Shown one piece after another: positions 56,980-64,000 of a stretch of DNA of 64,000 nucleotides (within the stretch, counting starts at the first letter, position 1; each line of letters opens with the position of its first letter). Below the pieces are notes generated by a model that saw nothing but the letters and a program-made list of their open reading frames with translations, made no database searches and was not told the origin of the DNA. Position numbers and translations under genes: made by a program. Origin of the DNA: Candidatus Sigynarchaeum calidifontis. GTDB lineage: Archaea > Asgardarchaeota > Lokiarchaeia > Sigyniarchaeales > Sigyniarchaeaceae. Location: assembly GCA_030587475.2 (NCBI GenBank), contig JAUQYZ020000189.1, positions 1-64,000 of the forward strand, written 5' to 3'.

Positions 56980-57239
56980 GGGTTCCCTTTGCCATGACGA
57001 GCACGTGCATGACTCGACCCGACGCGCCCAGCAAGGTTGCCCGGGTATCCCGTCGTGTTGCCACCTTAAATAATCCGCGCGTATCCTATCCCTCTCGACC
57101 TGGCGCCCGGAACCAGCACCAGACTTGAGCCAGTGCCAGCCTCCAAGTTTTTAAGCCAGATCGCCCGTGACTACATAAGCCGGCGCGCTCCGAAACGAGA
57201 CCCGTGCGCGCTCGAGACCCTTCTCGTGTCCGGGGTTTG

Positions 57240-58907
57240 ATGTCGATGCAGCAGAGTAGCAACAACGCGACCTCGTTGGAACCGTGGCTTTCACGAACCT
57301 ATGTACGGTTTTTGCAAGCCTTACAAGCGTTGCAGGAACATGCTGGCAAGGCAAGCACTAGCGAGAAGGGGCGAGGGAGCGAGTTCATCAATATGTCTCC
57401 TTTCTTGTCCTTGGATATCGACGCGCGTTTTCTCGAATCCGCCACGAAAAAATACGCCCTCGATCTTGCCGGCGCGTTGTACCGCATGTTGGATCTCGTG
57501 ATCGACGTGCCGGCGAAGCGTTTACTCGCGGCGAGCGTGATCGTTCAAGACACGGGAAAACCTGCGAGCGTTATCAACATCGACGTGAGTTCGATCCAGG
57601 ATCGAGTAGCGGCGATTCTTGGAAAACAGGCCTCCGTTGCAGATCTTGACGAATCGGCTCTTAACAGCTTGTTCAAGTTAGCATGTTCCATGACACTTCC
57701 AAACGGAAAGGCGATGCCGCCAATCGACATCATCAAGGTCATTGATGCGAAGCTGTTCGAGCAGCTCATGGCGATCGACGAGATGGAATCCCCGCCCTCT
57801 AGCGTCGAATCCATGGCGCGAAGGCTCGCCGCGCTGCTTGCCGCGTGCCGCGATGGCCTCGTGCGGTTCTATCCCATCAAGGACAAGCTCGCCTCATTCG
57901 CATGCAAGGTCGGATCTGCCATCCAAGGCCGGTTGCTCGAGGATATCGCCGGCATGGCTAGCACGTTCTTGCCATCAGGGTCGGCTGCCATCGTGGTTCA
58001 CACGGGCGAGGCGATGGCTATGTTCCGCGTGAAGCGTTCAATGCGTGGCGAGGCCAGCATTGCCGCGTTGTCCATCGCCGGCATCGACGGCTTCTTGCCG
58101 GTTGTTCCGGACATCCTCGATGCCCTTGCTGACAAGATTCGCCGCGATGCAGGCGTTGACGTGGTTTTATTCTTTTCGCTGGACGAAATCATCGACATCA
58201 TCACGATGACGATCGATGGCATCATTGCCAGGGAGCACGACAAGAATGGTCCAGGGCTCGCGCGCGCGATCTCGGAATCGATCGGCCTTTACGCGCGCAC
58301 CTTCAAGCTCACGTGGTACTCGCGACCCCGGGCGATGCTCACCAAGTTATTCCCCCGCTTTCTCCTCCGGTTCGCCAAGATCCGCCTCGACTTGCCTCGA
58401 TTTCTCCACGACCGCGCGGCGATGGCTGTCGTGTCTGCGTTCCTCGATAATTTCGGAAAAGATTTTTCGATGGTTGCATGCCTTCCTGTCCGGCAGCATG
58501 GGCAGCGTACCATCAAGGCGATCGAGATCACGGTCAAGAATCTCGTTCCCGTGCGGTTTTCTTCTGTCGATCCGGCCACGTTTGCTGGAATCCGGCCAGA
58601 CATGATTGACGCGAGCGATGTTGCACGAACGGTGCATTTACGGCTCGGAACGACGTCGCCCGTGCCCGTTTTAAGGTACGTGCTGGTGATCGCGCCGAAG
58701 ATCGCTGAAACCATCGCGTCTGCATGGAAAACGATGTTCCGCCGCGTCGCGTGGAACCCGTTCGCGCTGCTCGACGTGCTCAAGCGCTGCCGTGATCCAC
58801 GAGCGTTCGGATTACACCCGATGCCCCGTCAGATCGGCGACATGCTCAAGTCGAAGCCCAAGGACGTCGTGCGGCGGCTCTCGAATGCTTATATCTTGAA
58901 ATATTGA
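57240..58907 (+). CDS. Hypothetical protein (about 555 aa, soluble)
   Basis: Long ORF filling the gap between neighbours; no recognisable motif. Confidence 0.7.
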   Translation: MSMQQSSNNATSLEPWLSRTYVRFLQALQALQEHAGKASTSEKGRGSEFINMSPFLSLDIDARFLESATKKYALDLAGALYRMLDLVIDVPAKRLLAASVIVQDTGKPASVINIDVSSIQDRVAAILGKQASVADLDESALNSLFKLACSMTLPNGKAMPPIDIIKVIDAKLFEQLMAIDEMESPPSSVESMARRLAALLAACRDGLVRFYPIKDKLASFACKVGSAIQGRLLEDIAGMASTFLPSGSAAIVVHTGEAMAMFRVKRSMRGEASIAALSIAGIDGFLPVVPDILDALADKIRRDAGVDVVLFFSLDEIIDIITMTIDGIIAREHDKNGPGLARAISESIGLYARTFKLTWYSRPRAMLTKLFPRFLLRFAKIRLDLPRFLHDRAAMAVVSAFLDNFGKDFSMVACLPVRQHGQRTIKAIEITVKNLVPVRFSSVDPATFAGIRPDMIDASDVARTVHLRLGTTSPVPVLRYVLVIAPKIAETIASAWKTMFRRVAWNPFALLDVLKRCRDPRAFGLHPMPRQIGDMLKSKPKDVVRRLSNAYILKY

Positions 58908-61241: not shown

Positions 61242-61313
61242 AATTTCCCCCGGTTACTTTTTTTTTTCTTCTCGTGCGCAACATTTTAAAGCAGCGGTCG
61301 CCTTCTCGCATCG

Positions 61314-62111
61314 ATGGATTCTCCTCTCAAGTGGGTTGGCTCGAAGCGCTTGTTAAAAAGGCGCATCTGCTCGCTCATCCCGCGAGATCACGACACCTAC
61401 GTCGAACCATTCGTCGGCTCGGGTGCCGTGTTCTTTTTCAAGAATTCCACGCGGATGAATAACGAACCGAAACCATCCAAGTTGGAGGTACTCAACGACA
61501 TCGATGCGCTGCTCATTAATTTTTACAAAGTCATTCAAGACCCGCGCACTTTCAATGAATTCCTCGAACGGCTCGATTGCACGCTGGTTTCCAGGGATCT
61601 CTTCATGGAATATCGCCAATCCGATTGGAATACGCTCGATCCTGTCGAGAGAGCCTTCCGGATGTATTACATCGTAAAAACATCATTCGGCGGGCTCTTC
61701 CGGTTCAACCAGGAAGGCAAGTGCAATTCGCCCTTCGCGTCAACGCCGGACAAGAAGGCGCGCTCCTTTCTTTTCAAGAAAGAACCGCTCATCGCGGCAC
61801 ATGACAGGTTACAAGGCGTCGTGCTGCTTGATCTCGACTATGCAGCGGTTCTCGAAAAATACGACTCGCCCTCCACGTTCTTCTATATCGATCCCCCTTA
61901 TGAGACCGATTACGCCTATAACAAGCCATTCGACCACGATGCACTCGCCCGCCGATGCAAGCGCCTAAAGGGCAGGTTTGTCTTGTCCCTCAACTCGAGT
62001 TTCTCTGATCGATTCGCCGAATTTTCCATCGAGACAATCAAAGTGAATTATAGCGTAACTTGCAAGCCAGGCGACAACGCGTGGAGCGAGATCATCGTGA
62101 AAAACTATTAG
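61314..62111 (+). CDS. DNA adenine methyltransferase, D12/Dam family
   Basis: PLKWVGSK, EPFVGSG, LNDID and catalytic YIDPPY motifs; EIIVKNY end. Confidence 0.93.
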   Translation: MDSPLKWVGSKRLLKRRICSLIPRDHDTYVEPFVGSGAVFFFKNSTRMNNEPKPSKLEVLNDIDALLINFYKVIQDPRTFNEFLERLDCTLVSRDLFMEYRQSDWNTLDPVERAFRMYYIVKTSFGGLFRFNQEGKCNSPFASTPDKKARSFLFKKEPLIAAHDRLQGVVLLDLDYAAVLEKYDSPSTFFYIDPPYETDYAYNKPFDHDALARRCKRLKGRFVLSLNSSFSDRFAEFSIETIKVNYSVTCKPGDNAWSEIIVKNY

Positions 62112-62136
62112 CATTTGGTTCAATCGAGAGATCTAA

Positions 62137-62860
62137 CATGTATAAAGCACCCGCCAGTTTGTCTACATGGAGCGAATTTGCCCAGCAATTGAACCGTATT
62201 CTCCACGAATCACTTGCATTGTGCGAGCCTTGGTTCGGGCACGGGTCATTAATCTTTTCACCTTGCAAGCTGCATTTCAAGGTAAACGTGATCAACGATC
62301 CCGGGCAAGGCCTGTTAAAACTCTTCGAGATGGTTCGCATCGACAAACGCGCCCTCCGTGAAGCAATGGCGCATGAGCTGATCCAAGCTTGTTTACCGCA
62401 GTTCTCTAAACGATCTCCTTTCTTGAAAACGTCCAGTGATATAATCGATGGTGTTTCCGCCTTCCGCTTTTGTGTGGATCGCTTGATCATTGATCCGGTG
62501 GCAGCCACGGCGAACGATGCAGCATTCTCCGAGGCCATCGCTACCATTCACGAGAAACTCGTACCGGTTCTCGTTGAAAATTTACCTGTTACTGAATTCA
62601 TCAAGCGGTTCGACAAGCCATACACGGTTTTTTACATCCCCAAGTTCACTGGCGGCATCGCCGGTTCATTGGAAACTATTGGCATGTCGGTAAATCACTT
62701 GCAAGGGTGCCTCTTGATCGAGGCGAATAATGTCGACGAGATAATTAGTACCCTCCAGCGCTTTTTAAAAGACATCCGGTTGGCAAAAGTCGGCACGGTT
62801 GACTTCCCCACACGGCTGGACAAGAAAACGCGTCTTTTCATCATAAAACAAGGGGCATGA
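62137..62860 (+). CDS. Catalytically degenerate Dam-family paralogue (pseudo-methyltransferase)
   Basis: EPWFGHGSLIF, VINDP, IHEKLVPVLVENL, RFDKPYTVFYIPKF and LQGCLLI are colinear with the upstream MTase; DPPY is absent. Confidence 0.75.
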
Positions 62861-63584
62861 CTTTTGTAGAATGCAAATCTGCGTCCTTCTCGAGTATATT
62901 GTTGACACGATCGAGATGCTGCCAATGCACGACAAAGAATGGCTGCTGAAACTCGTCCACGAGCTTGAACATGTATTCATCGAACGGAAATGATGGGAGA
63001 CAAGGACGTGGACGGCCGCCGTGGACGATGATCCGCCGAACGAGCTTGCCCCGGATTTCGGGGGTCCGCCGCGACAATCTCGCTTGTGGTGGGTTCATCA
63101 TGACCACGCCGTCAACGTCTTTGAGGAGGACGATCACGGGAAAGGCGGGGTCACACGCGAGCGCCATTGCGAGCCAGTAGGTAATGCTGTCTGAGGTTAC
63201 CTCCCACGAGCGCGGCAAGTGGCCCTCACGTTCTCGCAGAAGACGAGTAACTGGCGGGAACAAAAGGTTCTCGATTCCTCGGCATTCTTTATGCATCATT
63301 TGGGCGCGCTCGTCCATTATACCTATCGCGAGCCAGTGCGCAGCTTCCAAGGGGTTTGTATTTTCCCCGCTGCGCTCATGCCAATCTTGGCAAATCCGGT
63401 TTGGATCCGATTCGTATTGCTCCCGTATCGAGTCAACGGGTTTTCCACCACCACATATCACATAAAATAAGTTATGCGGCCATGATCTTGCTAGATTCTT
63501 CAAGTCATGAGCTATTTTTTCCCGAAAAATGGAATTATCGAGCACTCTTCCGCATATTTTCAAAAAAACAAGTTTACCAACCAT
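62841..63584 (-). CDS. mfnE: Amino-acid-kinase family protein, MfnE-like (methanofuran biosynthesis)
   Basis: GGG..VD.IR, AHWLAI..MD, LPRSWEVTSDSI and LLKDVDG motifs; overlaps the mfnF-like gene. Confidence 0.7.
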   Translation of the reverse strand: MVGKLVFLKICGRVLDNSIFREKIAHDLKNLARSWPHNLFYVICGGGKPVDSIREQYESDPNRICQDWHERSGENTNPLEAAHWLAIGIMDERAQMMHKECRGIENLLFPPVTRLLREREGHLPRSWEVTSDSITYWLAMALACDPAFPVIVLLKDVDGVVMMNPPQARLSRRTPEIRGKLVRRIIVHGGRPRPCLPSFPFDEYMFKLVDEFQQPFFVVHWQHLDRVNNILEKDADLHSTKVMPLVL

Positions 63585-64000
63585 TGAATCCAACACCCTT
63601 CAAGTAACTGGCGAGTATGTGCAGAACTCCCAGCGCAGATGAAACGGTTGATGATGGCTTGCCTATTTTTTCTGCAAGAGGGATGATCTTGTTGAATCCG
63701 GCCTGCCTCGCCGCTTGCATCGCCAGGAAACCTTCACCAACCCCCGTCAACACGCACGTTAAAGTGCGATCGTATTGCCGGGTAACTTTTTCGAGTCCAT
63801 TTTGTACCATGCGTACTTGTTCTTGGGCGAGGAACCTCGCCATGTTCAGGATCACGTCATCCCCAAGTTCTGCCGCGTCCTCACAAACGATCCTTGCCAA
63901 CCGTTTTTTTGAATCTTCGATCGTGTTGGGACGACCATCGGCGGTGTCGCAATCATATTGTTCTCTCGTGATATTTCCGAGAATGAGGTGGACATCCGCC
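63574..64000 (-). CDS. mfnF: MfnF-like hydantoinase-A family protein (5' part lies outside the window)
   Basis: ADVHLILGNITREQYDCDTADGR...RLARIVCED and TGVGEGFLA motifs. Confidence 0.75.
   Translation of the reverse strand, partial: ADVHLILGNITREQYDCDTADGRPNTIEDSKKRLARIVCEDAAELGDDVILNMARFLAQEQVRMVQNGLEKVTRQYDRTLTCVLTGVGEGFLAMQAARQAGFNKIIPLAEKIGKPSSTVSSALGVLHILASYLKGVGFNGW

Follow-up and report, generated by a model that had tools for sequence, protein, structure and literature searches.

The 64,000-nt window analyzed here (positions 1 to 64,000 of contig JAUQYZ020000189.1 from Candidatus Sigynarchaeum calidifontis) contains two adjacent genes on the same strand, which encode an intact methyltransferase of the D12/Dam type (ORF1, the enzyme) and a protein of the same fold that has lost its catalytic parts (ORF2, the partner). 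The coordinates of both genes and of the features discussed below are collected in Table 1. Only 26 nt separate the two frames, and that of ORF2 is uninterrupted across its whole length. The first-pass annotation of this DNA had thus correctly described a co-oriented, uninterrupted 240-aa frame behind the methyltransferase, while the start (ATG at 62137) and the spacing (25 bp) that it gave are each short by one nucleotide. An alternative in-frame TTG for ORF2 is present at 62060; the ATG is nevertheless the likely start, since the open frame of close homologues extends no more than two codons upstream of the corresponding ATG.

Table 1. Features of the enzyme–partner locus and its surroundings (positions in the window; residue numbers refer to the protein named)
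Feature	Position	Strand	Remarks
550-aa ORF	57204..58907	+	
T-run after thermosome stop	61258..61267	+	Probable archaeal terminator between the upstream gene and the pair; predicted from the sequence
TATA-like box	61284..61291	+	22 nt before the ORF1 ATG; suggests a separate, probably leaderless, two-gene transcript
Methyltransferase ORF1	61314..62111	+	265 aa; intact alpha-class (D12/Dam-like) amino-methyltransferase, L-x-S-R loop subfamily
Insertion after motif I, enzyme residues 44-52	61443..61469	+	9 residues
Enzyme "donor" loop and helix start, residues 86-99	61569..61610	+	Leu91, Ser93, Arg94; main predicted contact
Enzyme DNA-recognition hairpin, residues 122-141	61677..61736	+	Leu128, Arg130 and Pro140 correspond to EcoDam L122, R124 and P134
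Enzyme residues 172-173	61827..61832	+	Leu-Asp here; Glu-Asn/Cys in unpaired relatives
Catalytic DPPY of the enzyme	61890..61901	+	Invariant
Dead Dam-fold partner ORF2	62138..62860	+	240 aa; Rossmann core kept
Partner "acceptor" helix, residues 57-67	62306..62338	+	Leu59, Phe63, Arg67; predicted
Partner residues 93-95 (Ser-Pro-Phe)	62414..62422	+	Conserved; Pro94 and Phe95 in the predicted interface
Partner residues 135-148, helix end and edge strand 3	62540..62581	+	Invariant Glu147
Eroded catalytic motif, partner residues 163-170, strand 4	62624..62647	+	Only one Pro left
MfnE-like gene	62841..63596	-	Stop overlaps the partner 3' end by 20 nt
MfnF-like gene	63574..64000	-	

A transcript shared by the two genes is likely, because the TATA-like box lies before ORF1 and after the T-run that closes the thermosome gene. 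T/A boxes are found at about the same distance before the ORF1 homologues in most of 12 homologous loci. A sigma-70 promoter scan was set aside as not applicable to archaea. The neighbours of the pair are the thermosome gene and the MfnE-like and MfnF-like genes, the latter two being convergent to the pair and syntenic in all loci. The match of the protein resembling MfnE of the methanofuran pathway to NF040622 (E 4e-10) is below the cut-off, and for the MfnF/H4MPT-linked protein TIGR03123 is above its cut-off in a homologue. The 550-aa ORF, which gave no NCBIfam or PADLOC match, is conserved in most loci, where it and a GNAT gene precede the thermosome gene. As had been noted for this locus at first pass, no restriction nuclease is adjacent; none was found among the called neighbours of the methyltransferase genes in the loci examined, and the DpnII-type nuclease family (PF04556) had no match in five genomes of 63-94% completeness. 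A type II restriction-modification system, whether DpnII-like or of the two-methyltransferase type IIS, was rejected on these grounds.

The enzyme scores 110 bits with PF02086, where the cut-off is 22, and 134.9 bits with TIGR00571 dam, where it is 114.85; it reaches only 59 bits against the EcoDam equivalog PRK10904, for which the cut-off is 441. By these scores ORF1 is a member of the D12/Dam family but no EcoDam orthologue, so that of the earlier description, "canonical Dam-family MTase", the family stands and the word canonical was an overstatement. The alpha-class order of motifs (X, I, II, III, DPPY) is intact across 16 loci, over which KWVGSK, motif I, Asp62, Asp175-Tyr176 and DPPY are all conserved, and the orthologues are 67-89% identical across 15 paired loci. 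In EcoDam, GATC is read by K9, L122, R124 and P134 (PMC10073500). The equivalent residues of ORF1 (Lys6, Leu128, Arg130 and Pro140) are all invariant, with Tyr or Phe at the position of EcoDam Y119 and Gly at that of N120. Because all four equivalents are kept by the enzyme and none by the partner, ORF1 most likely reads DNA by itself. Its target is probably a GATC-like site, and it is a predicted m6A enzyme; the same fold with DPPY can also make m4C, as in M.CbeI (PMC8616854). The frequency of GATC in the source genome (observed/expected 1.0) is uninformative on the methylation target. An insertion of nine residues after motif I occurs in 14 of 15 paired loci; it is absent from the unpaired relatives and lies outside the interface predicted below.

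Further D12 genes are present in these and other genomes. The source genome carries two more that are intact (C144:10915-11901 and C249:991-1983, loci L006 and L007), the former of canonical Dam/DpnM type with a GATC-type hairpin and, by eye, beside ParB-like and RelE/ParE-like ORFs. PF02086 genes with comparably high scores are present in G001 and G003. Three of the four genomes of the window's family have, besides the paired gene, a Dam-family gene of canonical type with a higher score, which could mask a GATC signal. In a Helarchaeota genome (G189, L039:8718-10411, minus strand) the enzyme orthologue is unpaired and overlaps, on its upstream side, a methyltransferase gene of CcrM/PRK11524 type, an arrangement which recalls dpnA plus dpnM, and more methyltransferase-like genes lie nearby. 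A viral contig (L054:3001-3783) encodes a stand-alone phage enzyme 51% identical to ORF1; the enzyme clade therefore moves on phages, and the archaeal ORF1 may derive from a mobile copy. In the Dam-like phage genes of four other viral contigs (L099, L101, L125 and L128) DSPY replaces DPPY; with the other motifs intact in the three examined, these are probably an active variant.

The relationship of the partner to the enzyme is supported at several levels. BLASTP aligns the two proteins with 22% identity over 165 aa (E 8e-6), profile-profile comparison by hhalign gives a probability of 97.7 (E 1.8e-12, 193 columns), and a D12 methyltransferase profile run against all frames of the genome picks up ORF2 at E 2.5e-13. 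With the AlphaFold2 model of ORF2 (mean pLDDT 87.5) as a query, the top 17 Foldseek matches are all of Dam type (Dam, M.CbeI, DpnM), with a best E of 3.9e-7 and TM about 0.5, and TM to the PF02086 models in Atlas is 0.59-0.62. VIA-align returns generic class I methyltransferase matches (Z 7.5-9), among which the D12 enzymes align the most residues (187-194). ORF2 is thus D12-derived, with a class I methyltransferase fold and a Dam-type insertion after strand 2; the homology to Dam proposed at first pass is borne out, both in sequence and by the profile and structure searches suggested for it. Of the matching segments listed then, those of motif I, motif II, the strand-3-to-strand-4 region and strand 5 hold, whereas the register of RAFRMY/SAFRFC is uncertain because this pairing sits three residues off the profile alignment. 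ORF2 itself has no match in Pfam, NCBIfam or PHROGs, and PADLOC gives only weak type II methyltransferase matches (E 3e-4 to 1e-3).

The losses noticed in ORF2 at first pass (DPPY, the N-terminal KWxGxK and part of the recognition region) prove to be true of every family member. In all 21 aligned members the N-terminal Trp/Lys SAM/DNA motif, the recognition hairpin and the catalytic (D/N/S)PP(Y/F) are missing, and the motif III Asp-aromatic pair and the donor loop are likewise gone. The motif II Asp is invariant, while the aromatic and the glycine of motif I vary. These losses bear on two of the roles first suggested for the partner, those of specificity subunit and of methyl-DNA reader. A shortened helical insertion does remain at the position of the Dam recognition domain, but at 47-49% identity it is among the least conserved parts of a protein in which two core blocks reach 77-78% and the termini and most of the insertion 40-49%. 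In the partner the counterpart of the enzyme hairpin is deleted or replaced and the N-terminal Lys is missing, and the invariant reading residues belong to the enzyme. The net charge of the partner is below that of the enzyme in 15 of 16 loci, and neutral or negative in 13 of the 16. With none of the EcoDam reading residues and a lower net charge than the enzyme, the partner probably neither reads DNA nor confers specificity, and such a role is given very little credence.

A second function in addition to binding the enzyme, namely sensing of SAM/SAH or another ligand or recruitment of a third protein, has more in its favour and is still improbable. Eight residues outside the predicted interface are at least 90% conserved (Glu30, Ser37, Asn53, Asp54, Arg157, Phe158, Tyr162 and Phe165), and Phe47 and Tyr162 occur only in the partner family; the conserved residues may, however, simply be the core of the fold. 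Most of the SAM-contacting positions known from Dam and DpnM structures, namely the N-terminal Trp and Lys, the motif III Asp-aromatic pair and the Asp of DPPY, are lost from the partner, in which motif I also varies as described, so that the SAM reader earlier envisaged is doubtful, the invariant motif II Asp being what remains in its support.

The partner family comprises about 21 full-length members of 23-65% identity, with source names that point to Ca. Sigynarchaeum and Promethearchaeota. An Asgard origin of the locus is supported by the source names of close homologues (Ca. Sigynarchaeum springense, 65% and 88% identical). Within the phylum, the partner turned up in each of the four genomes that belong to the window's family, probably Sigynarchaeaceae, and in none of the other 396 searched, of which 150 are from the same order. 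Three matches outside the family, obtained in the phylum search of 400 genomes, were rejected as partners, being intact DPPY enzymes. No second copy was found in the source genome, nor any partner among 80 viral D12 loci. A genome deposited as Ca. Bathyarchaeota (G002, L051) and a protein labelled Hodarchaeota (P0015) carry the same locus; these labels look unreliable, since genome-based placement puts G002 in the window's family. An intact ORF1 orthologue lies directly upstream and co-oriented in 16 of 16 distinct loci with enough DNA, at gaps of -37 to +60 nt, with all frames intact and the two genes overlapping in five loci. The tandem synteny for which a test across Lokiarchaeia had been suggested is seen in all of these loci, but its scope among the genomes searched is one family.

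Among eight close loci the partner has a dN/dS (Nei-Gojobori) of 0.28-0.51 and the enzyme one of 0.07-0.20, and in simulations of a neutral copy at 1 substitution per site the frame stayed open in 0 of 4000. By these measures the partner is under purifying selection, in agreement with the earlier proposal of selection for a non-catalytic role, for which a dN/dS below 1 had been named as a check.

The two chains were modelled together with ESMFold2, using both alignments. The predicted complex has an ipSAE of 0.81, as opposed to 0.00 for the best control; this mark is attained by 58 of 80 solved complexes and by 2 of 110 mismatched pairs, and is to be read with the reservation that it was obtained with custom alignments, that near relatives of a genuine partner can reach the mark as well, and that the chains here are homologous. 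The runs share at least 78% of contacts, with a partner pLDDT of at least 82. The model supports an enzyme–partner heterodimer, an outcome in favour of the complex for which structure prediction had been proposed as a check. The predicted interface brings enzyme residues 86-99 and 150-154 together with partner residues 49, 57-67, 94-95 and 135-148, the closest contacts being those of partner residues 144-147 against enzyme residues 91-93. Conservation across 13 diverged members is 76% at the 19 partner residues predicted to lie in the interface, compared to 46% for the rest of the partner core (Mann-Whitney p about 1e-5, the positions not being independent); no other part of the partner is as well conserved as this predicted surface. 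Enzyme and partner distances correlate (r 0.86), with 3 of 13 splits shared at weak support; the correlation is not counted as co-evolution, since shared ancestry alone would produce it. Residue covariation was dropped at an effective alignment depth of only 30.

A pattern of complementary loss in the alignments concerns two residues of this interface. They were followed in 20 paired-type enzymes, in 30 close relatives with about 50-57% identity to ORF1 and in 93 more distant D12 proteins; absence of the partner among unpaired relatives was checked in the Helarchaeota genome and the viral loci. Outside the paired clade, 99-100% of the 123 relatives have Arg94, and 99-100% have Glu172. Arg94 is kept by all 20 paired-type enzymes and is absent in the partner, whereas Glu172 is present in 0 of the 20 and in 100% of partners, where it is Glu147. 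The complex model joins the two halves, the Arg94 loop of the enzyme and the Glu half of the partner. The paired enzyme still has most of the hydrophobic acceptor residues (Leu67, Tyr71, Trp105, His163, Leu166 and Val169), so that its acceptor loss is mainly that of Glu172-Asn173. Modelled as a monomer, the unpaired enzyme from the Helarchaeota genome (TM 0.76 to EcoDam) has its Arg94 loop as a coil with no strand pairing within the chain, which as weak evidence fits a contact between subunits. Among 14 diverse representatives ten have both Arg and Glu, and four have neither the loop motif nor the Glu, two of these four being misaligned canonical Dams scored Arg-positive by column; this co-occurrence is suggestive only. 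PDB searches gave no solved structure of the D12 subfamily with the Ser-Arg loop plus Glu.

Alternatively, the partner might have no contact with the enzyme. It would then be either a protein with a use of its own or a remnant in slow decay, left over for instance from a cassette with two methyltransferases, and would stay linked through conservation of the whole chromosomal block; this possibility has to be weighed against the pattern above. The surrounding housekeeping genes are syntenic too, the dN/dS of the partner is about three times that of the enzyme and its tree 4.6 times longer, and the complex score could reflect family memory. Plain decay is nevertheless excluded by frames that stay intact over 23-35% amino-acid identity; the pair remains joined even where the thermosome gene has moved away or genes have been inserted (L013, L014, L034 and L038), and conservation is concentrated on the predicted interface with its complementary Arg/Glu pattern. 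A partner without interaction is rated a shade below the second function considered above.

In the reading favoured here, with confidence a little better than even, ORF2 is an obligate scaffold subunit which replaces one half of an ancestral homo-oligomer. Both genes would encode a single two-subunit orphan DNA amino-methyltransferase, whereby ORF1 would bind SAM, read DNA, probably at a GATC-like site, and methylate it, and the dead and probably DNA-blind ORF2 would dock on the tip of the recognition domain of the enzyme. Loop 88-96 of the enzyme would pair with the partner's edge strand 144-147 and sit in a pocket formed by partner helices 57-67 and 135-141. Unpaired enzymes of the subfamily would self-associate through the same loop-to-strand contact; a second copy would then have taken over the acceptor side and lost all else, the enzyme would have lost its acceptor Glu-Asn, and it would thereafter be unstable or not fully active without the partner. 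The broader claim, that this is an obligate heterodimeric Dam/D12 methyltransferase arisen by complementary interface loss, and that it reveals the Ser-Arg loop plus Glu subfamily, including its phage members, as homo-oligomers, has somewhat less than an even chance of being right. A homomer-to-heteromer route through complementary losses has been described (PMC10888846), and the trypanosome PRMT1 ENZ/PRO heterodimer mimics a canonical homodimer (PMC10908127); EcoDam, on the other hand, is a monomer (PMC10073500), which counts against an ancestral homo-oligomer.

A regulatory switch would use the same predicted interface in a different manner: the enzyme would work alone or as a homo-oligomer, and the partner would bind the same loop to inhibit, cap or tune it. 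The enzyme retains most of its own acceptor pocket, the partner is predicted at the tip of the recognition domain, beside the DNA-binding region, and the capping of DNMT3A filaments by DNMT3L offers a precedent (PMC10908127). However, the apparent shared promoter and the gene overlaps in five loci suit a fixed stoichiometry better than independent control, and the loss of a near-invariant Glu would be hard to explain if the enzyme still self-associated like its relatives. Such a switch is unlikely, if less so than the other alternatives. As heteromers can become fixed through complementary losses that bring no gain (PMC10888846), the pair does not have to be a regulatory module, and the co-dependence of the two proteins may have arisen neutrally.

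The origin of the partner is compatible with either a tandem duplication of its neighbour or descent from another gene of the subfamily. The free tree puts the partner clade outside the paired enzymes, and the AU test rejects no placement of it (p 0.14-0.69; 121 columns). The close unpaired relatives, 51-57% identical, provide a ready outgroup, so the homomer-to-heteromer question is directly testable in two small genes. If the scaffold reading is true, an oligomeric interface is also predicted for a structurally unsolved D12 subfamily.

Among known systems, the enzyme belongs by score and motifs with EcoDam, DpnM, T4Dam and M.CbeI (PF02086, TIGR00571), and the partner shares their fold and descends from their family; EcoDam and DpnM are without the Ser-Arg loop plus Glu pair, and EcoDam is monomeric. 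Lineage-fixed orphan Dam-like GATC methyltransferases with no nuclease beside them are known from archaea as group HG3 (PMC10609329); in the available part of that survey no dead partner is mentioned for them, and the one complete Asgard genome covered is listed with no methylation data. Bacterial m6A enzymes are typically monomers or homodimers, enzyme/pseudo-enzyme pairs being regarded in 2025 as a eukaryotic elaboration (PMC12485025), and a 2024 review of methyltransferase heterooligomers of this kind does not mention bacteria or archaea (PMC10908127). In the searchable literature, the coverage of which is incomplete, the partnership was found described for eukaryotic methyltransferases and not for the prokaryotic D12/Dam family, for which no description of a dead partner subunit was found. 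The homodimers of CcrM and EcoP15I Mod are prokaryotic m6A enzymes in which one protomer is non-catalytic in a given round (PMC12485025), yet they belong to a different class, both protomers come from one intact gene, and the non-catalytic protomer reads and clamps DNA.

The eukaryotic pairs offer the closer functional likeness. METTL3-METTL14 and the ciliate MTA1-MTA9 combine an N6-adenine methyltransferase with a dead homologous subunit (PMC12485025, PMC10908127), but they are of the MT-A70 lineage, related to CcrM and EcoP15I Mod, whereas the archaeal pair is alpha-class D12; the heterodimer of MTA1c carries its DNA beside the interface, while the archaeal partner has lost the known DNA-reading parts. 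The origin of the archaeal pair is thus independent of the METTL14-type pairs, with no ancestry of, or link to, the eukaryotic pseudo-methyltransferases. DNMT3L resembles the partner as a dead DNA methyltransferase homologue that binds and affects an active one, DNMT3A (PMC10908127), yet that pair is of the eukaryotic C5-cytosine family and includes a chromatin-reading domain, none of which applies here. In Trypanosoma brucei, PRMT1 ENZ and PRMT1 PRO are likewise an active enzyme and its dead paralogue, whereby a heterodimer replaces the homodimer and the enzyme depends on the dead copy (PMC10908127). These properties were shown experimentally for a eukaryotic protein arginine methyltransferase; for the archaeal DNA methyltransferase the dependence and the ancestral homodimer are inferred.
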